This document shows, piece after piece, positions 1 to 55,972 of a stretch of 64,000 nt of DNA. How positions within the stretch are numbered: position 1 is the stretch's first letter; each line of letters starts with the position of its first letter. Under the pieces are notes generated by a model, which did not search any database, was not told the origin of the DNA, and saw nothing but the letters and a program-made list of their open reading frames with translations. The position numbers and the translations under genes were made by a program. Source of the stretch: Thermodesulfobacteriota bacterium (lineage in GTDB: Bacteria; Desulfobacterota; Binatia; UBA9968; JAJDTQ01); NCBI GenBank assembly GCA_965116735.1, contig OZ220712.1, positions 181,907 through 245,906 on the forward strand, read 5' to 3'.

Positions 1-1905
1 ATCGTGGCGTTGCCCGTCTCCCGCGTCCTGGCCGTCATCGAGGAGGCGGCGGGCGCCGGCGTGCCGTCGGGCATCGTCGTGGCCGAGGGCTTCGCGGACG
101 GAGATACGGCGGCGGGGCGGCGCCGGCAGCAGGAGCTTCAGCGCCTGGCGGGCGCCGCCGGCATGGCCGTCACCGGCCCGTGCTGCATGGGGGTGGCGAG
201 CCTCCGTTACGGCTTCGCCAACTCCTATTTCTCGATCCCGGAGGACCTGACGCCCGGAGGCGTCTCGCTCGTCTCCCAGAGCGGCGGTCTGACCAACGCC
301 GTCACCGAGTTGGCCGCGAGCCGCAACACCGGCTTCAACTACATCATCTCCAGCGGCAACGAGGCCGTGGTGGAGATGGCCGACTATATCGAATACCTCG
401 CCGACGATCCCGAGACGCGGGTCATCGCCTGCATCATGGAAGGGGCCAAGGACGGCGCCAAGCTGCGCCGGGTGCTGGCCTCCACCGGCCGCAAGAAGCC
501 CGTGGTGGTGTTGAAGCTCGGCCGCACCGAATCAGGACAGAGGGCCACGGTGGCCCACACCGGCACCCTGGCGGGCCAGCGGGAAGCCTACGAGGCGTTG
601 TTTCGCGAAACCGGCGTTGCCCAGGTGGACAGCCTCGACGAGTTGGTGGAGACCGCGGGGCTGTTCCTCCACGCGCCCCTTCCGGCGGGAGAGAGGGTCG
701 TGTTCCTGACCATCTCCGGCGGCGCCACGGCCCTCATCAGCGACGTCAACGCCATCGCCGGCCTCCGGTGCCCGGCCTTGTCCGCGGCCACCAACGCGAA
801 GCTCGGGGAGATTCTCGGTGTCCAGGATCGTCCGTTCAACAACCCCATCGACACCGTGGGGATGCCGCGCATCGAACAGGGTAACAATCTCACGACGGTT
901 CTCGACACGCTGTTGAACGACGACGGCATCGATCTGGTGGGGTTGGCTCTCAGCACCAAACGGGTGCATGTGCCCACGCAAAAGAAGCTGCTGGACCAGG
1001 TGGCCGCCTGCGCCCGGACCACGACGAAGCCGCTGTTCGTGCTGTCCCTGGTGTCCAACGGTCTCACGGCAGACTGCCGCACGTTCTCCGCCGAGACCGC
1101 CGTGCCGATGCTGGAGGACGTGACCGGCGGGATGAAGGCCGTGCGCAAGCTCGTGGATCACGGGGTGTTCCGGCGCAGGCGGAAGCCGGTTCGGATGGCG
1201 GCGGACTCCGTGGAGTTTCATGCTCCGGAAGGCGTCGGCGCGTTGACCGAGCACGACAGCAAGCGCATCCTCGCCCGTGCGGGCATCACCGTGACCCGTG
1301 AAGGGCTCGCCGAGACGCCCGAGGAGGCGATGGAGAGAGCTGCCGACCTTGGTCGCCCGGTGGCTTTGAAGGTCCAGTCACCCGACGTGCCGCACAAGTC
1401 GGATGCCGGGGGCGTCCATCTTGGCGCCGCAACCGCCGAGGAGGTGGAGACCGCCTACCTCCGCATCACCAGGAACGTCAAGGCGGCGCACCCCGACGCC
1501 CGCATCGACGGCGTCCTGGTGCAGGAAATGGTCTCCGACGGGCTGGAAGTCATCGTCGGCATGGTGCACGATGCACAGTTCGGGCCGCTGGTGATGGTGG
1601 GGCTGGGCGGTATCTACGTCGAAGTGTTCAAGGACGCCGCCTTCCGCCTGCCGCCGCTGGACGAGGAAGACGTGCGCGAGATGCTGGCGGAACTGCGCGG
1701 AGGGGTGCTGCTGGACGGCCCGCGGGGAGGGAAGCCCCGTGACGTGGATGCGCTGGTGGATTGCGTGGTCCGTTTCGGCGACTTCGTCGCCCACAACGCC
1801 GGGCGCTTTACCGCGGTGGAGATGAACCCGGTGATGGTGCGTCCCCAAGGCCTCGGCGTAGCGGTGGCGGACGCCCTGATAACGGTGGCAGCGGAAACGG
1901 GCTAG
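1..1905 (+). CDS. acyl-CoA synthetase, ADP/NDP-forming (CoA-binding + ATP-grasp); 5' end outside window
   Basis: ORF 4..1905 is open to the window edge. Succinyl-CoA-ligase-like CoA-binding/flavodoxin part followed by an ATP-grasp part (..LKVQSPDVPHKSDAGGVHLG..), recognised by eye. Confidence 0.8.
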   Translation: MVALPVSRVLAVIEEAAGAGVPSGIVVAEGFADGDTAAGRRRQQELQRLAGAAGMAVTGPCCMGVASLRYGFANSYFSIPEDLTPGGVSLVSQSGGLTNAVTELAASRNTGFNYIISSGNEAVVEMADYIEYLADDPETRVIACIMEGAKDGAKLRRVLASTGRKKPVVVLKLGRTESGQRATVAHTGTLAGQREAYEALFRETGVAQVDSLDELVETAGLFLHAPLPAGERVVFLTISGGATALISDVNAIAGLRCPALSAATNAKLGEILGVQDRPFNNPIDTVGMPRIEQGNNLTTVLDTLLNDDGIDLVGLALSTKRVHVPTQKKLLDQVAACARTTTKPLFVLSLVSNGLTADCRTFSAETAVPMLEDVTGGMKAVRKLVDHGVFRRRRKPVRMAADSVEFHAPEGVGALTEHDSKRILARAGITVTREGLAETPEEAMERAADLGRPVALKVQSPDVPHKSDAGGVHLGAATAEEVETAYLRITRNVKAAHPDARIDGVLVQEMVSDGLEVIVGMVHDAQFGPLVMVGLGGIYVEVFKDAAFRLPPLDEEDVREMLAELRGGVLLDGPRGGKPRDVDALVDCVVRFGDFVAHNAGRFTAVEMNPVMVRPQGLGVAVADALITVAAETG

Positions 1906-2066
1906 TGTCGCGTCCCGTGAATTCCTGGCATAAGTTGCGCAGGATTTTTTGTTGTCGGCAAGGCGCGATGACGAGCAGTGGCGGGCACCACGCGGGGAAG
2001 AGCAACGCAGCCGACGGCGAAAAAGACCAGCAAATTATGCCAGGAAATTACGGGACACGACACTAG
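1902..2066. mobile_element. MITE copy 1 (165 bp, CTAG-flanked, ~30-bp terminal inverted repeats)
   Basis: ctagtgtcgcgtcccgtgaattcctggcataa ... ttatgccaggaaattacgggacacgacactag. Same core as the copies at 29968 and 32800. The left CTAG contains the stop codon of the upstream gene. Confidence 0.8.
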
Positions 2067-10543: not shown

Positions 10544-10572
10544 GGTCCGTTGCCGGACGCCCACGGTGAAAT

Positions 10573-10644
10573 GTAGGGGCGGGTTTCAAACCCGCCCGCG
10601 TTCGCATCGCACGGTTCACGGGCGGGTTTGAAACCCGCCCCTAC
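10573..10644. repeat. REP family A, inverted pair (gtaggggcgggtttcaaacccgccc ... gggcgggtttgaaacccgcccctac)
   Basis: Two inverted copies around a 22-nt spacer, between the two ACAD genes. Confidence 0.85.
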
Positions 10645-13016: not shown

Positions 13017-13047
13017 GCGTCCGTCCGGGTGACTCGCGTGAAATGAC

Positions 13048-13074
13048 GTAGGGGCGACCGGCGGTCGCCCTTGC
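13048..13074. repeat. REP family B
   Basis: gtaggggcgaccggcggtcgcccttgc. Confidence 0.8.
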
Positions 13075-13149
13075 AGGGTTCCACCGCAGCGTAGGCCGCC
13101 AGTGTTCCGGAACCGGGTTCCGGAACACTGGTTCGTCGCCGGGGCCTTC

Positions 13150-19708: not shown

Positions 19709-21817
19709 ATGGACTACATCATCGGCGTCGATATCGGCGGCACCTGCACGGACTGCGTCATCCTGGACGCCGACGGTAAGCTGACCATCGGGAAGGCGCT
19801 GTCGACGCCCCACGACTTTTCCCAGGGCGTCATCGATTCCCTCGCGGACGGAGCCGCGAATCTCGGGCTAGCCTCCGTGGACGACCTGCTCCGCTCGACC
19901 CGCCTCTTCTTCCATGCCTGCACCGTCGCCGACAACACTCTCATCACCCGCACCGGGGCGCGAACCGGGCTGGTGGCTACCGAGGGCTTCGCGGACAGCT
20001 TCCTGATGATGCGCGGCAATGTGACCCACGGCCTGACGGAGGCCGAGGCCTCGCACATCGCGGGCCTGGAAAAGCCGGAGCCGCTGGCGCCGCGGAGCCT
20101 GACCGGGGAGGTGCGGGGGCGCATCGACTACAAGGGATCGGTGCTGATCGAAGCCGACGAGGCGCAGATCGAGGAGGTGGTGGAGCGCCTCGCGGCCAAG
20201 GGGGTGGAGTCGGTGGCCGTGTGCCTGCTGTGGTCCATCGCCAACGACGCCCACGAGAAGGCGGTGGCCGAGGTGATCCGCCGCAAGCATCCCGAGATCC
20301 ATGTGAGCTGCTCGAGCGACGTTGCGCCGTTCCTGGGCGAGTACGAGCGCACCGCGACGACGATCTTCAACGCCTACATCGGCCCCCGGATCGCTTCGTA
20401 CCTGCGCAACCTTCAGCAAGGCCTCGCGGACCGGGGGCTTGCGAGCGATCCCCTGGTGATGCAGGCCTACGGCGGGATGCTGGGCATCGAAGCCGCCTCC
20501 CAACGGGCCATCGGCGCCCTGGAGTCCGGACCCGCAGCCGGGGTCGTGGGAAGCAGGTTCATCGGCGACCTCATCGACGAGCCCAACGTCCTGGCGGCGG
20601 ACATGGGCGGCACTACCTTCAAGGTCAGCCTGGTAAGGAACGGCGTCATCGAGCGGGACTACCAGCCGGTGTTCGAGCGCTACAGCATCCTGGCGCCCAA
20701 GATCTGGGTGGCCTCCATCGGCGCGGGTGGCGGCAGCATCGCCTGGATCGACCGCACTTCCGGCCTGCTCAAGGTCGGCCCCCAGGGGGCGGGCGCGGCC
20801 CCCGGCCCGGTGGCCTACGGCGTCGGCGGGAGCGAGCCGACGGTGTGCGACGCCGACGTGGCTCTCGGGTATCTGAACCCCGACTACTTTCTGGGGGGCC
20901 GTCTCGCACTCAGGAAGGAGGAGGCCGTGGCCGCCATCGAGGAGCGCATCGCCGGGCCGCTGGGGATGACCGTGACGGCGGCCGCCGGCGGCATCTTCCG
21001 GATTATCAACGCCCACATGAGCGATCTCATCCGCCGCTGCACGGTGGAGCGGGGGCAGGACCCGCGGGAGTTCACCATGGTGGCCATCGGCGGCTCCGCG
21101 CCCGCCCACGCCTCGCGCTGCGCACATCAGCTCGGCATGCGCAAGGTGGTCATTCCGCTGACGGCCTCGGTGCACGCGGCCACCGGTCTGATCTCCGCGG
21201 ACGTGACCTACGAGTACGGCATGTCCGACCACGTGGTGGCGCCGCTGGACCCGGTGCGGCTCAACGCCGGCTTCGACACGCTGCGCGCCCGCGCCGCCGC
21301 CGACCTCGCGAGCGCTGGTTTCCGGGACGGCGGCACCGAGATTCTGCGCAGCGTGGACATGCGCTACCGCTACCAGGTCAACGAGATCAACGTGCCGGTG
21401 CCGGGGCGGGAGCCGGTGGGGAGCGATGACCTGGAGCAGCTCTACGCCCGGTTCGACGATCTCTACGAGCAGTCCTACGGGAAGGGAGCCGGGTATCCGG
21501 AGGCGGGCAGGGAGATGCTGTCGTTGCGCGTCACGGCTGTCGGCAAGCTGGCCAGGCCGGCGGTCCACAGGAGCGAGGCCGGGCCGGGCGATGCCGCGTC
21601 GGCGCGCAAGGGAACGCGGGAGGCGTACTTCGAGGAACACGGAGACTTCGTCCCCACCGAGGTCTACGACTTCGAGGGCCTGTCCCCCGGCGCCGGGATC
21701 GCCGGCCCGGCCATCATCGAGACGCCGGTCACCACCATCGTCGTGAACCCCAACGACCGCGCGGAGATGGACGCGTTCCGCAACATCGTGATTTACGTAG
21801 GCCAAGGGTCGGGATAA
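19709..21817 (+). CDS. hydantoinase/oxoprolinase A-type subunit (acetone carboxylase beta-like)
   Basis: MDYIIGVDIGGTCTDCV.. 702 aa. Confidence 0.9.
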   Translation: MDYIIGVDIGGTCTDCVILDADGKLTIGKALSTPHDFSQGVIDSLADGAANLGLASVDDLLRSTRLFFHACTVADNTLITRTGARTGLVATEGFADSFLMMRGNVTHGLTEAEASHIAGLEKPEPLAPRSLTGEVRGRIDYKGSVLIEADEAQIEEVVERLAAKGVESVAVCLLWSIANDAHEKAVAEVIRRKHPEIHVSCSSDVAPFLGEYERTATTIFNAYIGPRIASYLRNLQQGLADRGLASDPLVMQAYGGMLGIEAASQRAIGALESGPAAGVVGSRFIGDLIDEPNVLAADMGGTTFKVSLVRNGVIERDYQPVFERYSILAPKIWVASIGAGGGSIAWIDRTSGLLKVGPQGAGAAPGPVAYGVGGSEPTVCDADVALGYLNPDYFLGGRLALRKEEAVAAIEERIAGPLGMTVTAAAGGIFRIINAHMSDLIRRCTVERGQDPREFTMVAIGGSAPAHASRCAHQLGMRKVVIPLTASVHAATGLISADVTYEYGMSDHVVAPLDPVRLNAGFDTLRARAAADLASAGFRDGGTEILRSVDMRYRYQVNEINVPVPGREPVGSDDLEQLYARFDDLYEQSYGKGAGYPEAGREMLSLRVTAVGKLARPAVHRSEAGPGDAASARKGTREAYFEEHGDFVPTEVYDFEGLSPGAGIAGPAIIETPVTTIVVNPNDRAEMDAFRNIVIYVGQGSG

Positions 21818-21818
21818 T

Positions 21819-21846
21819 GTAGGGGCGACCGGTGGTCGCCCCTGTC
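21819..21846. repeat. REP family B
   Basis: gtaggggcgaccggtggtcgcccctgtc, immediately after the stop at 21817. Confidence 0.8.
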
Positions 21847-21883
21847 GGGGTCCGCCGCGGTGCAGAGTCCCTCGGAGAACAGC

Positions 21884-27059: not shown

Positions 27060-28010
27060 TTACGCCGCGGCTTCCTCCGGCAGCGGATAGTTCTCGCACA
27101 GCTTGCGCCACCGTTGCGCGATGGCCTTGGCCTCGGCCCGGGTCTCGTCGGTGGTCACCCGGAAAGGCGGCCTGCCGGGCCCGGCGTAGCAGTAGCCCGC
27201 CTCGTTGATGGCGATCTTGCTCTCCACCGGGTCGGTCTCGCTCGGGTCACGCCCGCCGACCCGCGCCATGGCCATGCAGATCTCCTTGACCTCGTCCCAC
27301 CGTCCGTCGCGCCCGGCCCGGTAGGCCCGCACCACCGGCGACGGCCCCATCCACGCGTTGATGGACCAGCACCCGGCGGCCCCTAACATCATGTACGGGT
27401 ACATCTGGTTCTGGTTGGTCATGACGCTGATCCGCCCCCGGACGATGTCCATGAGCTGCATGAACTGCATGGGGGTCCGGTGGCTGTCCTTCATGCCGAC
27501 GATGTTGGGGCTCGTGACGAGCTCCTTGAACGCCGACACCGGGATGTGGATGTGGTGGTTGCGCGGGTTGTGGTAGATGAAGATGCCCAGCTCGGGGTGC
27601 TCGTCGGCAAGGTCGAAGTAGAACTGTACGGCGTTGGCGACGCTAGACTTGAAGTAGAACGGAACCCCCACCAGTACTGCGTCGGCGCCGGCCTTGGCGG
27701 CATACTCCATCTTCAGCAGCACCTCCCGCGTGTGCAGGCTGGTGCAGCCGATGACCACCGGTATGCGCCTGTCCACCGTGGCGACGGTGGCGTCCGCCAG
27801 GGTCGTGAACTCCTCCCACAACAGGGTATGACACTCGCCGAACGTGCCGGTGGTGGCGATGACGCCGATGCCGTCGCGCACCGCCTGGTCCACGCTGCGC
27901 TCGAGCTCTGGAACGTTGACCGTGTTCGTGGCGCGCGGAGAGTTGGCGTCCTCGGTTGCGAAGGACGGCATCATGGCCATCACGCCGCGGATGTCACTGG
28001 CTTGGATCAT
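27060..28010 (-). CDS. DapA/NAL-superfamily class I aldolase, atypical long type (possible hydratase-aldolase)
   Basis: ..GTFGECHTLLWEEF.. and ..NIVGMKDSH.. (putative Schiff-base Lys). Close paralogue of 34456..35415. Confidence 0.8.
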   Translation of the reverse strand: MIQASDIRGVMAMMPSFATEDANSPRATNTVNVPELERSVDQAVRDGIGVIATTGTFGECHTLLWEEFTTLADATVATVDRRIPVVIGCTSLHTREVLLKMEYAAKAGADAVLVGVPFYFKSSVANAVQFYFDLADEHPELGIFIYHNPRNHHIHIPVSAFKELVTSPNIVGMKDSHRTPMQFMQLMDIVRGRISVMTNQNQMYPYMMLGAAGCWSINAWMGPSPVVRAYRAGRDGRWDEVKEICMAMARVGGRDPSETDPVESKIAINEAGYCYAGPGRPPFRVTTDETRAEAKAIAQRWRKLCENYPLPEEAAA

Positions 28011-29967: not shown

Positions 29968-30153
29968 CTAGTGTCGTGTCCCGTAATTTCCTGGCATAAG
30001 TTGCGCAGGATGTTTTGTCGTCGGCAAGGCGCGATGACGAGTGGGGGCGACCGTAGGTCGCCCCAGGGCGGGCACCACGCGAGGAAGAGCAACGCAGCCG
30101 ACGGCGAAAAAGACCAGCAAATTATGCCAGGAAATTACGGGACACGACACTAG
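29968..30153. mobile_element. MITE copy 2 (186 bp; carries a nested REP-B hairpin)
   Basis: Perfect 32-bp termini ctagtgtcgtgtcccgtaatttcctggcataa. The right CTAG supplies the TAG stop of the minus-strand gene 30150..30992. Confidence 0.85.
30043..30064. repeat. REP family B unit nested inside MITE copy 2
   Basis: gggggcgaccgtaggtcgcccc is present only in this MITE copy and accounts for its extra length. Confidence 0.75.
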
Positions 30154-30992
30154 CTCGAACGCAGGGTGTAGGTCACTTGCAGGCGCTCCGCACCGTAGTA
30201 CTCGCTCAGGAACTCTGCCTGGCTCTCATAGCCGCGGTTCGGAACCAGCCGCCCCTGGAATGACACCGGCAACGGATCGACATCGAAGGGGTAGGGTGTG
30301 ACCACGGCGTTCCATTCGTCCCGTATTGCGAACGACAGCACTGCGTCCTCGCGGCCGGGACGCACCGGCGCGGCGATGCCGCTCAGCGTGGGGCTCGGTC
30401 CGTTCTTTCGGTGGGTGGCGTTGAACGGATAGCGGTTGCAGATGAACTGGCCCATCTGGTCGTAGATCTCCATCAGCTTGAAATTCGTCCATAGCTGTTT
30501 GTCCGACACGCAGTCGCGATACTCCGACGACTCCTTCAGCCCCGCCATCAGCCCTTCGCGGTAGCCCTCCTGCTCCCGCAGGAACTCGCGGACCTCGGGA
30601 TGGACCGTATAGTCGGGCATGTAGGAGAGCAGTCCCTTCCCCTGGCTCAACAGGGCCTCGGCGTGCAGCGAGACGATATAACCCGCGTAGGCGTCCTGCT
30701 CCGCCAGCCGCGTGATGCCGTTCCGGTAGAATTCCAGCCATACGCCCATTCCCAGGTGCCGGATGCTGCCGATGTAGTCGGGCGGCAACCCCTCGTCGTT
30801 GAGCTGCGGCTTGATCTCCCAGTCCCACCACCCCGTATCGTGTTCCTGTGCCGCCAGCACCATCGCTGCGTAAGGCGAAGGCCGCGCGAACTCGTCGTTG
30901 CCCCAGTGCGCGGCCAGCCATCCGGTCACACGGGAGTGGTCCACCTGAAGAATCAGCAACAGGCGCTCGTCGTCATAGGGGCAAACCATCAT
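30150..30992 (-). CDS. DUF3891-family protein
   Basis: ..LQVDHSRVTGWLAAHWGNDEF.. N-terminal signature. Start taken at the MM at 30992. Confidence 0.7.
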   Translation of the reverse strand: MMVCPYDDERLLLILQVDHSRVTGWLAAHWGNDEFARPSPYAAMVLAAQEHDTGWWDWEIKPQLNDEGLPPDYIGSIRHLGMGVWLEFYRNGITRLAEQDAYAGYIVSLHAEALLSQGKGLLSYMPDYTVHPEVREFLREQEGYREGLMAGLKESSEYRDCVSDKQLWTNFKLMEIYDQMGQFICNRYPFNATHRKNGPSPTLSGIAAPVRPGREDAVLSFAIRDEWNAVVTPYPFDVDPLPVSFQGRLVPNRGYESQAEFLSEYYGAERLQVTYTLRSS

Positions 30993-31133
30993 GGCCGTAT
31001 CTCCTTCCTGGCTGCGGTCGGGCCTCCGTTCCGCCACCGCAAAGGCTGGGTCCAGATTGAAGAAATCTCCGTTGTCTTGTACCTTCGATGGAGGTCCACT
31101 ATCAACCTGCGGCATGGCGGCACAGAGGGATAC

Positions 31134-32030
31134 ATGGCCTTCATCGTAAGCGAGAAACTGTCAGCCTATGATCCAGACATCCAACTCGCCGAGTCGATGA
31201 TACTCCTCGGGGACGCCCAACATGTCCTCTCCCGTTTGCCTCGCGAATCTGTCCAGTGTGTGGTGACGTCGCCGCCCTACTGGGGTCTAAGGGACTACGA
31301 TATCAAGGATCAGATCGGACTGGAGCCGACGCTTCCACAGTTCGTCAACCGCCTCATCGCCGTTTTTCAAGAAGTCAAACGAGTTCTGAAACCGGGCGGG
31401 ACCTTCTGGTTGAACGTGGGGGATGGCTATACGAGCGGGAACCGGACTTGGCGTGCTCCTGACAAGAAGAACCGCGCCCGCGCAATGTCTGTGCGCCCTG
31501 AGACACCGGACGGTCTCAAGCCAAAGGATCTGATAGGGGTTCCATGGCGTCTCGCGCTGGCACTTCAGGAAGATGGCTGGTACCTGCGTAGTGACATCGT
31601 CTGGCACAAGCCCAACGCCATGCCCGAAAGCGTGAAGGATCGTCCGACACGAGCCCACGAGTACATTTTTCTATTCACCAGAAGCGAGCGCTACTACTAC
31701 GACCACGACGCAATCAAGGAGCCCGGTGGCAATGGCGCGCGCAAGCGCAATCGCCGGTCGGTATGGGATGTGAACACAGAGCCGACCAAGGATGCCCACT
31801 TCGCGACGTTTCCACCTAAACTGATCGAACCTTGTATCCTCGCGGGGAGCCGTCCCGGCGACTACGTGTTGGACCCATTCTTCGGTACCGGTACGGTGGG
31901 TCTTGTCTGCCAGAAGACCGGCAGGAAATACATCGGAATCGAGCTGCATCCGGAATACGTCGAACTGGCGGCGGGCCGTTTGTCGAAGCACGAACGGCAA
32001 CTTGAGCTCAACCTGAGAAGTCCGCGATGA
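31134..32030 (+). CDS. DNA methyltransferase, beta class (N4-cytosine or N6-adenine; the SPPY motif favours m4C)
   Basis: Motif IV TSPPYW comes before motif I DPFFGTGT. AGAGGGA RBS. Confidence 0.9.
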   Translation: MAFIVSEKLSAYDPDIQLAESMILLGDAQHVLSRLPRESVQCVVTSPPYWGLRDYDIKDQIGLEPTLPQFVNRLIAVFQEVKRVLKPGGTFWLNVGDGYTSGNRTWRAPDKKNRARAMSVRPETPDGLKPKDLIGVPWRLALALQEDGWYLRSDIVWHKPNAMPESVKDRPTRAHEYIFLFTRSERYYYDHDAIKEPGGNGARKRNRRSVWDVNTEPTKDAHFATFPPKLIEPCILAGSRPGDYVLDPFFGTGTVGLVCQKTGRKYIGIELHPEYVELAAGRLSKHERQLELNLRSPR

Positions 32031-33148
32031 TCAACCTACCCGGTCCCCAACTTCAGATCGATTTCTCCAGGTCACTGAAAACAATCCGAAACCAGATGTT
32101 GCAGCAGGCGCTCCTGGCAACCGTCCGGGATGCCTCTCTTGAAGAGATTGACGCGGAACTTCGCGAGTATGCGACCGAGGAGGATCTCAAGCGCCTTGCC
32201 GCGCATGGCCTCAGGGGCGAGCTTTCCGGTTCCTTGTCTGCTCCGCCGAAACCCCCGGCTTCTGGGCTACTACAGGCTGCTGCTCGGTTTCAGCCAGAAG
32301 GCATTCTACGGCAGCGGCGGTGGTGCGGGTCCATTCAAGAGCATGGAGGACAGCGGTACGTTGTCCACTCACCAGGACGAGTCCCTGCACGATCTCTGCG
32401 GGGCGATGGTTGGTTGTGCATCGCTGCTGCTGGAGGCGTTCGACGAGGGAGATATCGAGCCTCAATTCCTCGATGACCTGACGCTGCTGACCCTGGGACC
32501 GCAACTGCGAGGCGGGGCGAACGTCAGAAAGGGCAGCGCGGGGATCGTGGTGGTCTTCGACGCTATCCGGGAAGTGGTCAAGGGGAACATACGAAAACAG
32601 AGCAGCAGACGCCTCGACATAAACAACGCTTCAGGCCGGAAGGTGACGATACAGTTCGCCGCTGATCCCGACATCGTCATCATGGAGCAAATGACTCCCG
32701 AGGTGCACCGAAACGTCATTGCCATAGAGGTCAAATCAGGTACGGACTTCTCCAACATCCACAACCGGATCGGCGAGGCCGAGAAGAGTCACCAGAAGGC
32801 TAGTGTCCTGTCTCACGTAATTCTTTACTAAGATGCGCAGGATTTTTTGTTGTCGGCAAGGCGCGATGACGAGCAGTGGCGGGCACCACGCGAGGAAGAG
32901 CAACGCAGCCGACGACAAAAAAGACCAGCAGATTAGTAAAGAATTACGTGGGACAGGACACTAGACAGGCGGGCTTCGTCGAATGTTGGACCATCGTCAA
33001 TGTCGACAAGATCGACCTGGAGATGGCGCGTCAGGAGTCCCCGTCTACCAATCGCTTCTACCGTATCTCCGAACTCAAGCGAGGCGAAGGCGACGAGTTT
33101 CGCGACTTTCGTTCCCGCGTACTCTCGCTGGTGGGAATTCCGGGCTGA
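32027..33148 (+). pseudogene. type II restriction endonuclease (PD-(D/E)XK; possibly XcyI/Cfr9I-like), inactivated by a frameshift and a MITE insertion
   Basis: ATGA-coupled start at 32027 and a frame change near 32215..32226. ..DPDIVIM..IAIEVKSG.. catalytic motif. The ORF runs into MITE copy 3, and deleting MITE + one CTAG joins it in frame to the tail ending at 33148. Confidence 0.65.
32800..32964. mobile_element. MITE copy 3 (165 bp; variant termini)
   Basis: ctagtgtcctgtctcacgtaattctttactaa ... ttagtaaagaattacgtgggacaggacactag. The core is near-identical to copies 1 and 2. Confidence 0.85.
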
Positions 33149-34455: not shown

Positions 34456-35415
34456 TTATGCGGCGGTGCGGCCGTTCTCGGCTTCCACCAGCGGGCGGTA
34501 ACGCTCGTTCATCTCCTGCCAGTGGGCCGCGCGCTTCCTGGCGCGGTCGATCTGGTTGTCCGGGAAATTGAGGAACGGCACCCGGGTGGGTCCCACCTTG
34601 CAGTAGTCCGAGTACTCCGCGGGCCGCTTGAAGCCTTCGCCCGGCACCGGCTTGCCTTGGCTGGCGACGTTGATGTCGGCGATGACCTCGGCGGCCTTGT
34701 CGTTCTCGCCGCGCCGCGCCAGGTTCCGCAGGTGCAGGATCGGCCACGGACCCATCCACACCTCGGTGGACCAGCAGCCGGCCGCGCCCATGCCGTAGTA
34801 GGGGTAGAGCTGGGTCTGGTTCACGAAGACGCTGATGCGGCCCTGGGTGATGCGCTGCAGGTTCATGAACGCGCTTGTCGTCCGGTGGCTGTCCTTCATG
34901 CCGATGATGCTGGGCTTCTTCACGAGTTCCTTGAACGCGCCCACCGGCAGCGTGAACTTGTGGTTGCCGGGGTTGTGGTAGACCATGATGTTGAGCGTCG
35001 GGAACAGGTCGGCGATGTCATGGTAGAAACGGATGGCGTCGTCCACCGGCAGGGTCTCGTAGTAGGGCACGCCCAGCAGCACCCCGTCCGCGGCCGTGTC
35101 CTTGACGAAGTTCATCTTCTGCACGACTTCCCGCGGGTTCGGGCTGGTGACGCCGATGAACAGCGGCACGCGCTTCTTGACCGTGTCCACGGCGGCGGTG
35201 GTGATGGTCCGGAACTCTTCCCACAAGAGGTTGTAGCACTCGCCGTAGGTCCCGGTGGTGGATATCACGTCGATGCCGTCCTTGATGATCCGGTCCACTC
35301 CCTCGGCCAGGTTGTCCACGGCGACGGTCTGGGTCGCGTTGATGTCGGTTGCGTCGTCGGTGGCGAAAGCGGGCATCATGCCCATGACTCCGCCCAGGTC
35401 CTTTGCGGTCAACAT
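34456..35415 (-). CDS. DapA/NAL-superfamily aldolase, atypical long type (paralogue of 27060..28010)
   Basis: ..GTYGECYNLLWEEF.. and ..IIGMKDSH.. Confidence 0.8.
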   Translation of the reverse strand: MLTAKDLGGVMGMMPAFATDDATDINATQTVAVDNLAEGVDRIIKDGIDVISTTGTYGECYNLLWEEFRTITTAAVDTVKKRVPLFIGVTSPNPREVVQKMNFVKDTAADGVLLGVPYYETLPVDDAIRFYHDIADLFPTLNIMVYHNPGNHKFTLPVGAFKELVKKPSIIGMKDSHRTTSAFMNLQRITQGRISVFVNQTQLYPYYGMGAAGCWSTEVWMGPWPILHLRNLARRGENDKAAEVIADINVASQGKPVPGEGFKRPAEYSDYCKVGPTRVPFLNFPDNQIDRARKRAAHWQEMNERYRPLVEAENGRTAA

Positions 35416-35522
35416 GAGATACCTCCTTGACTGAAACTGGATGCGGTGAATCCTGCTTTGGTGGAACTATACTCCCAAGAAAGCCCGTCTATCAATCGCG
35501 TGACGCCTGCGGAATCGGGCGC

Positions 35523-35547
35523 GGGCGGGTTTGAAACCCGCCCCTAC
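35523..35547. repeat. REP family A (supplies the TAG stop of 35544..36710)
   Basis: gggcgggtttgaaacccgcccctac. cta at 35544..35546 is the stop on the minus strand. Confidence 0.85.
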
Positions 35548-36710
35548 ACGTCATCGCGGCCCGTTGGCGCCGACCCCGCGGCGTCGATGCCGTAAAGCCC
35601 GGCGGCGGTGTTCCACAGGATCTTTTCCCGCGCGCCGTCGGCCACGCCCTTGAAGCAGCGCTCCACGGTCTCGCGCGTGCGCGGCCAGGTGGAGGTGGTC
35701 AGGGGCAGGTTGGTCGACCACAGGATGTGGTCTTCCCCAAGATAGCCCACGAACGGCGCGATCTCGTCGAACCACGCGGTCAGGTAGCATTGGCGCTGAA
35801 ACATCTCCGAGGGCTTGAGATCGTAGCCTTCGCGCGCAAGGCCGTCGTGCTCGAACTGGTGGTCGGCCCATTCCAGGTACAGCATGGCCCAGCTCAGGGC
35901 GCTCTCCGCGAACACCAGCCGCAGGCGCGGATGGCGCAGCAGCACCCGGGAGAACGACAGCAGCGAGAGCACGTAGACGCTGGACATGGGCCGCGTCACC
36001 GCGTCCACCGCCTCGGACAGGGCCGGGGCGAGACCGGAGTACGCCGGGTACATTAGCTCCGTCGAGGCCCCGGCGTGCAGCGCCACCGGCACCCCCATCT
36101 CCTCGCACGCGCTCCACACCGGATCGTACTCCGGATCGCTCACGTGGGGCACGTCCCGGAGGTGCATGGGCAGGGCCGGGAAGACGATGCCCCGGTGCCC
36201 CGCGGCCACGGCCCGCTGCATCTCTTCGGCCGCCGTCTCCGGCGGCCAGATGGGCGCGATGCACTGGGGGACGAACCGCGGGCTGGCGGAAGCCCACTCC
36301 TCCAGCAGCCAGTCGTTGTAGGCCCGGATGCATGCGATCTCCAGCTCCGGGTCGTCGAGCCGTGCGAAGGCTTCTCCGGCCATGCCGGCGACGGTGGGAA
36401 AGAGCACGGAAAAGGCGATGCCGGCGGCGTCCATGGCCTTGAGCCGCTCCGCGGGCGACCAGGCCGCGGCGGGCACCTCTTCCCAGCACCGGGGCTCGCG
36501 GTTGCGGTCGGGCATGAGCGCCCCGGCCGACGCCACCTTGCCGCCGAGGAGCGGCCGGCCGTCCACCACCCAGCGTTCGGCGCCGTCCGCGTCGCGTTCG
36601 AGACGCGGCACGCGTTCGCCGAACCGGCTCCGGGAGAGCCGGCTGGTCCACAGGTCGGGCGGCTCCTGGACGTGGTCGTCGACGCTGACGAAATCGCGGC
36701 CCGGGCTCAT
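35544..36710 (-). CDS. amidohydrolase, Amidohydro_2 family
   Basis: MSPGRDFVSVDDHVQEP.. 4-nt overlap with the upstream paralogue. Confidence 0.85.
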   Translation of the reverse strand: MSPGRDFVSVDDHVQEPPDLWTSRLSRSRFGERVPRLERDADGAERWVVDGRPLLGGKVASAGALMPDRNREPRCWEEVPAAAWSPAERLKAMDAAGIAFSVLFPTVAGMAGEAFARLDDPELEIACIRAYNDWLLEEWASASPRFVPQCIAPIWPPETAAEEMQRAVAAGHRGIVFPALPMHLRDVPHVSDPEYDPVWSACEEMGVPVALHAGASTELMYPAYSGLAPALSEAVDAVTRPMSSVYVLSLLSFSRVLLRHPRLRLVFAESALSWAMLYLEWADHQFEHDGLAREGYDLKPSEMFQRQCYLTAWFDEIAPFVGYLGEDHILWSTNLPLTTSTWPRTRETVERCFKGVADGAREKILWNTAAGLYGIDAAGSAPTGRDDV

Positions 36711-53168: not shown

Positions 53169-53185
53169 TGGTCCGCGTCGCAACA

Positions 53186-53225
53186 GCGTCCTTCGACTCC
53201 GCTTTGCTACGCTCAGGACGAACGG
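53186..53225. repeat. REP family D unit
   Basis: gcgtccttcgactccgctttgctacgctcaggacgaacgg is the reverse complement of part of 55835..55951. Confidence 0.75.
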
Positions 53226-53231
53226 GTTCCC

Positions 53232-55834: not shown

Positions 55835-55951
55835 GCCCTTCGACAAGCCTGTCCTGAGCTTGTCGAAGGGCTCAGGACAGGCTTGAAGAAGGGCTCGGGA
55901 CGAACGGGATTCCCGTTCGTCCTGAGCGTAGCGAAGCGAAGTCGAAGGACG
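55835..55951. repeat. REP family D cluster (several interlocking hairpins)
   Basis: gcccttcgacaagcctgtcctgagcttgtcgaagggctcaggacaggc... cgaacgggattcccgttcgtcctgagcgtagcgaagcgaagtcgaaggacg. Confidence 0.75.
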
Positions 55952-55972
55952 TTGGACCGAGAGGAGCACGAC

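Follow-up and report, generated by a model that had tools for sequence, protein, structure and literature searches.

A restriction–modification locus of the XcyI/Cfr9I/XmaI kind in a sponge-associated Binatia bacterium: an intact methyltransferase gene beside a probable endonuclease pseudogene with a deletion and a MITE insertion

INTRODUCTION

Among described restriction–modification (RM) systems, the closest to the locus analysed in this work are the type IIP systems of the XcyI/Cfr9I/XmaI kind, which act at C^CCGGG. M.XcyI and M.Cfr9I are listed as cytosine-N4 methyltransferases (PMC8557920), and XmaI and Cfr9I, which are isoschizomers, share an origin (PMC4081073). The locus lies in a stretch of 64,000 nt (the window; contig OZ220712.1, positions 181,907 to 245,906, assembly GCA_965116735.1) from a Thermodesulfobacteriota bacterium of the Binatia lineage, and consists of an intact DNA methyltransferase gene and, immediately downstream, an endonuclease gene that has in all probability become a pseudogene through a small deletion and the insertion of a miniature inverted-repeat transposable element (MITE).

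The decay of RM systems is asymmetric: loss of the endonuclease is immediately costless, while loss of the methylase first is lethal. Solitary ('orphan') methyltransferases reportedly derive from such decay, as Seshasayee et al. are said to have described in Nucleic Acids Research in 2012. As for the inserted element, transposition of the IS630 type duplicates a TA and prefers CTAG as a target, and RUP of Streptococcus pneumoniae is an example of an IS630-derived MITE, thought to be mobilised by IS630-Spn1.

RESULTS

The endonuclease gene and its reading frames

We conclude with high confidence that positions 32027..33148 of the window are a pseudogene of an XcyI-family type II restriction endonuclease. 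The features of the RM locus are as follows (positions are those of the window unless a locus is named).

31134..32030, plus strand: intact DNA methyltransferase gene, 298 aa, with an N6_N4_Mtase domain and the motifs TSPPYW and DPFFGTGT
32027..32222, plus strand: endonuclease pseudogene segment 1, frame 2, codons 1-65 plus one base, equivalent to residues 1-65 of the intact orthologues
32222..32223, plus strand: lesion 1, a 5-nt deletion (ancestral GAGC-TTCTA-TTTCC, with a 2-nt TT microhomology) that loses 'LL' and shifts the frame
32223..32802, plus strand: endonuclease pseudogene segment 2, frame 0, stop-free, with the conserved LLGYYRLLLG block and a putative DPDIVI...IAIEVK motif
32803..32961, unstranded: lesion 2, MITE copy 3, 159 nt, IS630-derived, with TA duplicated (32801-32802 and 32962-32963) in a CTAG target; it adds the stop TAA 32829-32831
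32964..33148, plus strand: endonuclease pseudogene segment 3, frame 2, the C-terminal 61 aa RQAGFVECWT...LVGIPG*, beyond the reach of translation

The gene lacks an uninterrupted open reading frame (ORF), being broken by the 5-nt deletion and by the 159-nt MITE. A previous reading of the DNA by a model that saw only the letters and their ORFs (the sequence-only reading) had proposed most of this architecture, and each of its statements on the sequence was borne out. The start is coupled to the methyltransferase stop, since the ATG at 32027 overlaps the TGA at 32028-32030 in an ATGA. Segment 1 reads MINLPGPQ...AAHGLRGE in frame 2 with no stop up to 32222, where the coding character is lost from that frame; the switch to frame 0, which had been placed near 32215..32226, is located between 32222 and 32223. 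Segment 2 then reads FPVPCLLRRNPRLLGYYRLLLGFSQKAFY ... DPDIVIM ... IAIEVKSGTD ... HQKA, enters the repeat at 32800 and, as had been described, stops 9 codons on (SVLSHVILY*, TAA 32829-32831). Removal of 161 nt (32804..32964) restores the ORF in the manner proposed, bringing HQKA in frame with RQAGFVECWT...LVGIPG*, which ends at 33148. By translation and alignment, the three segments contain zero further stops or gaps, and the repaired product of 319-321 aa agrees with the protein of ~320 aa that had been expected.

Family searches were carried out with this conceptually repaired protein. The XcyI/Cfr9I family, which the sequence-only reading had proposed, proved to be the right one: the protein matches the Pfam profile PF09571 RE_XcyI from end to end (positions 3-305/305, E=1.4e-110, 369.8 bits against a cut-off of 25). 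In a large protein collection there are ~3800 homologues at E<=0.001; all 120 of the 120 listed carry PF09571, and among the full-length homologues the 19 nearest have lengths of 320-322 aa and identities of 69-87%. A 14-sequence alignment shows P214, D215, E234 and K236 to be invariant, as P214-D215 and E234-V-K236. These positions fit a PD-(D/E)XK site and, on the basis of motif conservation, are the putative catalytic residues; in an AlphaFold2 model made with the 14-sequence alignment (predicted local distance difference test, pLDDT, 71.9; predicted template modelling score, pTM, 0.46) they lie on consecutive beta strands. The invariant QIDF and GLRGE, together with other invariant positions, are held in segment 1, and alignment of segment 3 to the C-termini of the orthologues shows that the residues of ECWT, ESPST and DF are invariant as well. 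An NCBIfam search with the endonuclease gave no relative, and a sequence search of the PDB gave no relative with a solved structure. Cleavage at C^CCGGG would be the expected specificity, extrapolated from the characterised members of the family.

Intact orthologues and the residence of the system in the clade

Related sponge-associated Binatia genomes have intact orthologues of 320-322 aa, 84-87% identical to the repaired endonuclease, and the best homologues sit in long contigs and in complete chromosomes of metagenome-assembled genomes (MAGs). Five loci were read. Four of them have the gene order of the window (amidohydrolase, DUF3891, methyltransferase, endonuclease, MFS transporter), and the fifth (L002) has only the methyltransferase, endonuclease and MFS transporter in common with it. 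The runs in which the window's sequence occurs are sponge metagenomes or coded host-organism projects. Conserved synteny in Binatia loci and the sponge origin of these runs indicate that the RM system has long been resident in the chromosome of a sponge-associated Binatia clade. In base composition, the two RM genes (31134-33148) stand apart, with a G+C content of 58% against 65-67% in the neighbouring genes, which suggests an old horizontal acquisition despite the clade-wide synteny.

Lesion 1 is a 5-nt deletion

At the frameshift the orthologues read GLRGELLFPVPC (GLRGELLFPV), whereas the window reads GLRGE / FPVPC, with GAGC|TTTCC at the DNA level. Contigs of two sequencing runs, X3 and X5, carry TTCTA behind 32222, and a contig of X8, from a more distant relative (~89% identity, 30x), carries TCCTG at the same place; insertion of either restores GAG CTN CTN TTT, that is ELLF. 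These sister alleles identify lesion 1 as a 5-nt deletion. The suspicion, raised by the sequence-only reading, of a homopolymer or assembly indel at this point was not upheld: the net change is a deletion of 5 nt, the orthologues have GELLFPV, and the contigs of two runs agree with it. A homopolymer slip or a phase-variable tract was likewise considered and ruled out, the 5 nt having been lost from non-repetitive sequence.

Lesion 2 is a MITE with the termini of an IS630-type element

The repeat that interrupts the gene had been described as copy 3 of a MITE, and three copies were found in the window (~1905-2063, 29971-30150 and 32803-32961). The two outside the RM genes are the following.

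29971..30150, unstranded: MITE copy 2, 180 nt, a variant with an extra GC-rich hairpin module, in a CTAG overlapping the stop of the DUF3891 gene
1905..2063, unstranded: MITE copy 1, 159 nt

Copy 3 is short and has no ORF. Its terminal inverted repeats agree with each other at 28 of the outermost 29 positions and at 31 of the outermost 35, and it folds as a long hairpin (-52.7 kcal/mol, z=-12). Contigs of five runs (X3, X4, X6, X8 and X13) join 32800 to 32963 and thus show the empty site (...CAGAAGGCC AGACAGG..., where GCC AGA encodes Ala-Arg), so that the insertion is polymorphic, with filled and empty forms. Judged from these sequences, the lineage of the window must have had GCT AGA at the site, which created the CTAG target. 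The claim that the MITE entered a once-intact gene is upheld by the intact syntenic orthologues and by the presence, in sister populations, of the empty site and of the undeleted sequence.

The family to which this copy belongs is abundant. A 30-nt core pattern of the MITE was found in more than 105 stretches from MAGs labelled Binatia, 'Deltaproteobacteria', Thermodesulfobacteriota or Syntrophobacterales, and in run X1 the depth of this core is ~460 times the single-copy depth. Ends could be recognised in 87 copies, of which 39 have a length of 159 nt and 30 a length of 183 nt. In the literature collection searched, this MITE family was not described in any paper.

Which target does the element duplicate? 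CTAG stands on both sides of 75 of the 87 copies, as would be expected whether the MITE is of the IS630 type, duplicating TA, or of an IS5-type family duplicating the 4-bp CTAG. In all of the other 12, however, the left and right tetranucleotides are unequal, and they differ in the outer base only, within a search for MITE ends that fixed the inner bases (TAG.../...CTA) and to which inner variation was invisible. Because of these 12 copies, the duplication is more likely to be TA within a preferred CTAG than a 4-bp CTAG. The sequence-only reading had restored the gene by deleting the MITE plus one CTAG; its 161-nt arithmetic is unchanged, but the part of the target that was duplicated is probably TA. 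A full-length element in a related locus (L048:5165-6349) starts and ends with TA-GTGTGGTGTCTCACAAATA, has the same termini as the MITE (TA-GTGTGGTGTCTCAC...), and encodes a 372-aa transposase of the IS630 type with DDE_3 and HTH_32 domains, which argues further against an IS5-type family and leaves that alternative improbable. We infer from the shared termini that the MITE would be mobilised in trans by an IS630-type transposase. At L048:5165-6420 the full-length IS630-family element adjoins a MITE copy with the same termini, and in the Binatia MAG that carries it the XcyI-family endonuclease is intact.

The DUF3891 gene (30150..31115, minus strand) ends in a TAG stop that shares bases with a CTAG, and it is precisely into this CTAG that copy 2 of the MITE is inserted; the orthologues have an uninterrupted CCCTAGCTCGAA at this point. 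The duplicated TA and the terminal base of the MITE re-create the stop, and the DUF3891 ORF is therefore unaffected. The 183-nt class is longer by a GC-rich hairpin module of ~24 nt (in copy 2, GGGGCGACCGTAGGTCGCCCC at 30030-30060). The module resembles the REP-like hairpins at 13043-13094, 21814-21865, 10561-10600 and 35520-35559, and may therefore represent a small nested element inside the MITE.

Reality of the broken allele

Logan contigs of X1 (~69x) and X2 (3.9x) show 0 differences from the window from the deletion into the MITE, and the right MITE junction is covered by other contigs of the same two runs. X1 and X2 come from different coded organisms and studies, and their contigs were assembled separately. 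Run X2 probably underlies locus L001 (ERR14375724), as a contig of 2721 nt spans this stretch in each. The alternative alleles bear their own linked single-nucleotide polymorphisms (SNPs), which indicates that they belong to different strains.

Several observations weigh against the conclusion that this host carries an XcyI-family pseudogene. In the raw-read run X21 (Hi-C, 1% sampled), 0 reads fell on the locus. It is possible that an intact allele persists as a minority in the same host, as contigs drop rare variants, and the window itself may have been assembled from X1 or from X2, which would leave just one truly independent run. With regard to the PD-(D/E)XK assignment and the specificity, a Foldseek comparison of the mediocre AlphaFold2 model (pLDDT 72) with the PDB gave no match at E<=0.001, and CCCGGG is not depleted, either in the window (48 observed, 58.7 expected) or in related loci (719 observed, 725 expected). 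Avoidance of CCCGGG was considered as a test of specificity, and without depletion it is uninformative.

Two other explanations would leave the gene intact or working. The first is that assembly has produced one lesion or both, through an indel error at 32222 or a misplaced repeat at 32800. The source is a MAG, a MITE present at hundreds of copies could mislead an assembler, and the support for the broken allele comes from contigs and not from raw reads. Against this, the contigs of X1 (at 69x) and X2 follow the window without a mismatch through the deletion and the left junction of the MITE, with the right junction also covered; a 5-nt loss outside a homopolymer is atypical as a sequencing error; and the alternative alleles, with their linked SNPs, represent other strains and not corrected versions of this one. 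We consider an artefact very unlikely. That the gene still works, through programmed frameshifting, phase variation, or a truncated or split enzyme such as that of the 233-aa ORF 32130..32831, is just as implausible, for although frame 0 retains the PD...EVK region and an internal ATG at 32130, and the source annotation calls a 208-aa product (P0020), the deletion lies outside any repeat tract able to slip back, the frameshift detaches 65 N-terminal residues including the invariant QIDF and GLRGE, the stop in the MITE cuts off 62 C-terminal residues including the invariant ECWT, ESPST and DF, and 19 of the 19 close full-length homologues are 320-322 aa long.

The methyltransferase

The methyltransferase has a complete PF01555 N6_N4_Mtase domain in Pfam (profile positions 1-219/221, E=6.6e-58), and its translation has both motif IV, in the S-P-P-Y form, and motif I, FxGxG. 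By these sequence features it is of the beta-class N4-cytosine/N6-adenine type. SPPY in motif IV points to N4-cytosine and DPPY to N6-adenine, and the solved structures nearest to this protein include those of N4-cytosine enzymes (1boo M.PvuII, 8s9m/n), and also that of CcrM. The methyltransferase was presumably paired with the endonuclease that is now broken. It probably still modifies the genome; by analogy with the characterised systems, the product would be N4-methylcytosine (m4C) at CCCGGG. At present, the locus looks like that of a solitary methylase.

Compared with the sister allele in X3, the methyltransferase gene has 7 SNPs, 6 of them synonymous and 1 non-synonymous, and zero indels. 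Contigs of X4, a metatranscriptome, are identical to parts of the gene, and the empty-site allele is present there too; these contigs fit transcription of the methyltransferase, with carry-over of DNA as another possible source.

The 3' end of the gene (32010-32030) has one base more than in the orthologues. Here the protein is of 298 aa with the ATGA overlap, while in the orthologues it is of 308 aa and its gene overlaps that of the endonuclease by 35 nt. The catalytic domain is unaffected by the extra base. The X3 sister allele has no indel there relative to the window, so the extra-base state is common to the sub-lineage.

Timing of the lesions and possible parallel losses

Comparison of the endonuclease gene of the window with the X3 allele shows 12 differing sites, of which 8 are synonymous and 4 non-synonymous. 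Although these are small numbers, they fit an endonuclease that would have been functional until recently, and under purifying selection through most of the period after the two alleles diverged. The predominance of synonymous changes indicates that the lesions are recent, and they can be dated in this way because the ancestral states persist in sister populations.

Sister alleles without either of the window lesions show changes of their own. In a contig of X3 (8.8x), a 1-nt deletion at 32528 (AAA to AA) would frameshift an otherwise intact ORF of 321 aa, and in a contig of X6 (5.5x), 32293 is joined to 32771, an in-frame loss of 477 nt (32294..32770) that would remove the catalytic region. 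Each of these lesions occurs in one low-depth contig. We treat both as provisional, because another low-depth contig, from X13 (2.1x), shows several indels. The idea that the same endonuclease gene has been knocked out repeatedly and independently in related symbiont populations, with the methylase under purifying selection, is a tentative one, and we consider it rather unlikely. If the X3 and X6 lesions were confirmed, three inactivating routes would coexist in near-identical populations, and such repeated knock-out would point to selection against restriction or in favour of a solitary m4C methylase, the alternative being simple neutral decay.

Other sites and repeats in the window and in related loci

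The 64-kb window contains no CAGCTG, the recognition site of PvuII, where 20.4 would be expected, and in 826 kb of related sponge-Binatia DNA (loci L007-L107) the site is ~20-fold depleted (11 observed, 212 expected), which suggests a long-standing restriction pressure on CAGCTG in the clade. CTAG and CGATCG are ~2-fold depleted in the same related loci, and more strongly in the window, with 25 CTAG against 87 expected and 9 CGATCG against 24.8 expected.

A second family of palindromic repeats (..GTCCTTCGACTYCGCT..GCTCAGGACGAACGG..) occurs in the window at 53184-53226 and 55912-55954 and at L003:1790-1930; in the orthologous loci it also lies between the amidohydrolase and DUF3891 genes. A direct repeat of 249 nt with 71% identity is found at 27393-27641 and 34798-35046. 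Since a DHDPS-like gene (34456..35415, minus strand) contains the second copy, the first copy probably represents a paralogue.

DISCUSSION

In this work, we have analysed a chromosomal type II RM system of the XcyI/Cfr9I/XmaI kind, in which the methylase gene leads and the endonuclease gene follows in translational coupling, and which appears to be degrading in a lineage of sponge-associated Binatia. We propose that the endonuclease gene was hit twice, recently and independently. One hit would be a microhomology deletion of 5 nt at codon 66, leading to the frameshift, and the other the cut-and-paste insertion of an IS630-type MITE into CTAG at codon 259, with duplication of the central TA and a stop brought in by the element. 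Since either lesion alone removes invariant parts of the protein, an active endonuclease is probably no longer made. The methylase gene, untouched, would survive as that of a solitary methylase, and the genome would probably still be modified. Such an outcome follows the asymmetry of RM decay: the endonuclease can safely be lost and the methylase cannot be lost first, hence a solitary methylase remains.

The locus offers a well-resolved snapshot of an RM system becoming a solitary methylase. For annotation, we suggest that the endonuclease gene be labelled an XcyI-family pseudogene and its neighbour a probably active methylase. The locus further shows an IS630-derived MITE family to be active, now or in the recent past, in sponge-associated Binatia. 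Otherwise it is unexceptional: it adds one more instance of known RM decay, with a modest population-genetic twist, and existing knowledge of RM systems and of MITEs is unchanged by it.

How does the locus compare with known systems? Like the type IIP systems of the XcyI/Cfr9I/XmaI kind, it has an endonuclease sequence that spans the whole family profile, and a partner that is a beta-class amino-methyltransferase with SPPY. Unlike in those systems, the endonuclease gene is here a probable pseudogene with two lesions, the specificity is extrapolated, and the host is an uncultured sponge-associated Binatia bacterium and not a proteobacterium. With the orphan methyltransferases it shares an intact methylase gene, with mostly synonymous substitutions, beside an inactivated endonuclease gene; in contrast to them, it is at an early stage, as the remnant is complete except for the two lesions, and versions free of these lesions are found in sister populations. 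The inserted element resembles other IS630-derived MITEs, RUP among them, in its size (159-183 nt), long inverted repeats, lack of an ORF, TA duplication, many copies and preference for CTAG targets, and its termini match those of an element with an IS630-type transposase. It differs from them in that the family appears to be specific to sponge-associated Binatia and related MAGs, and in having a 183-nt subclass with an additional hairpin module.

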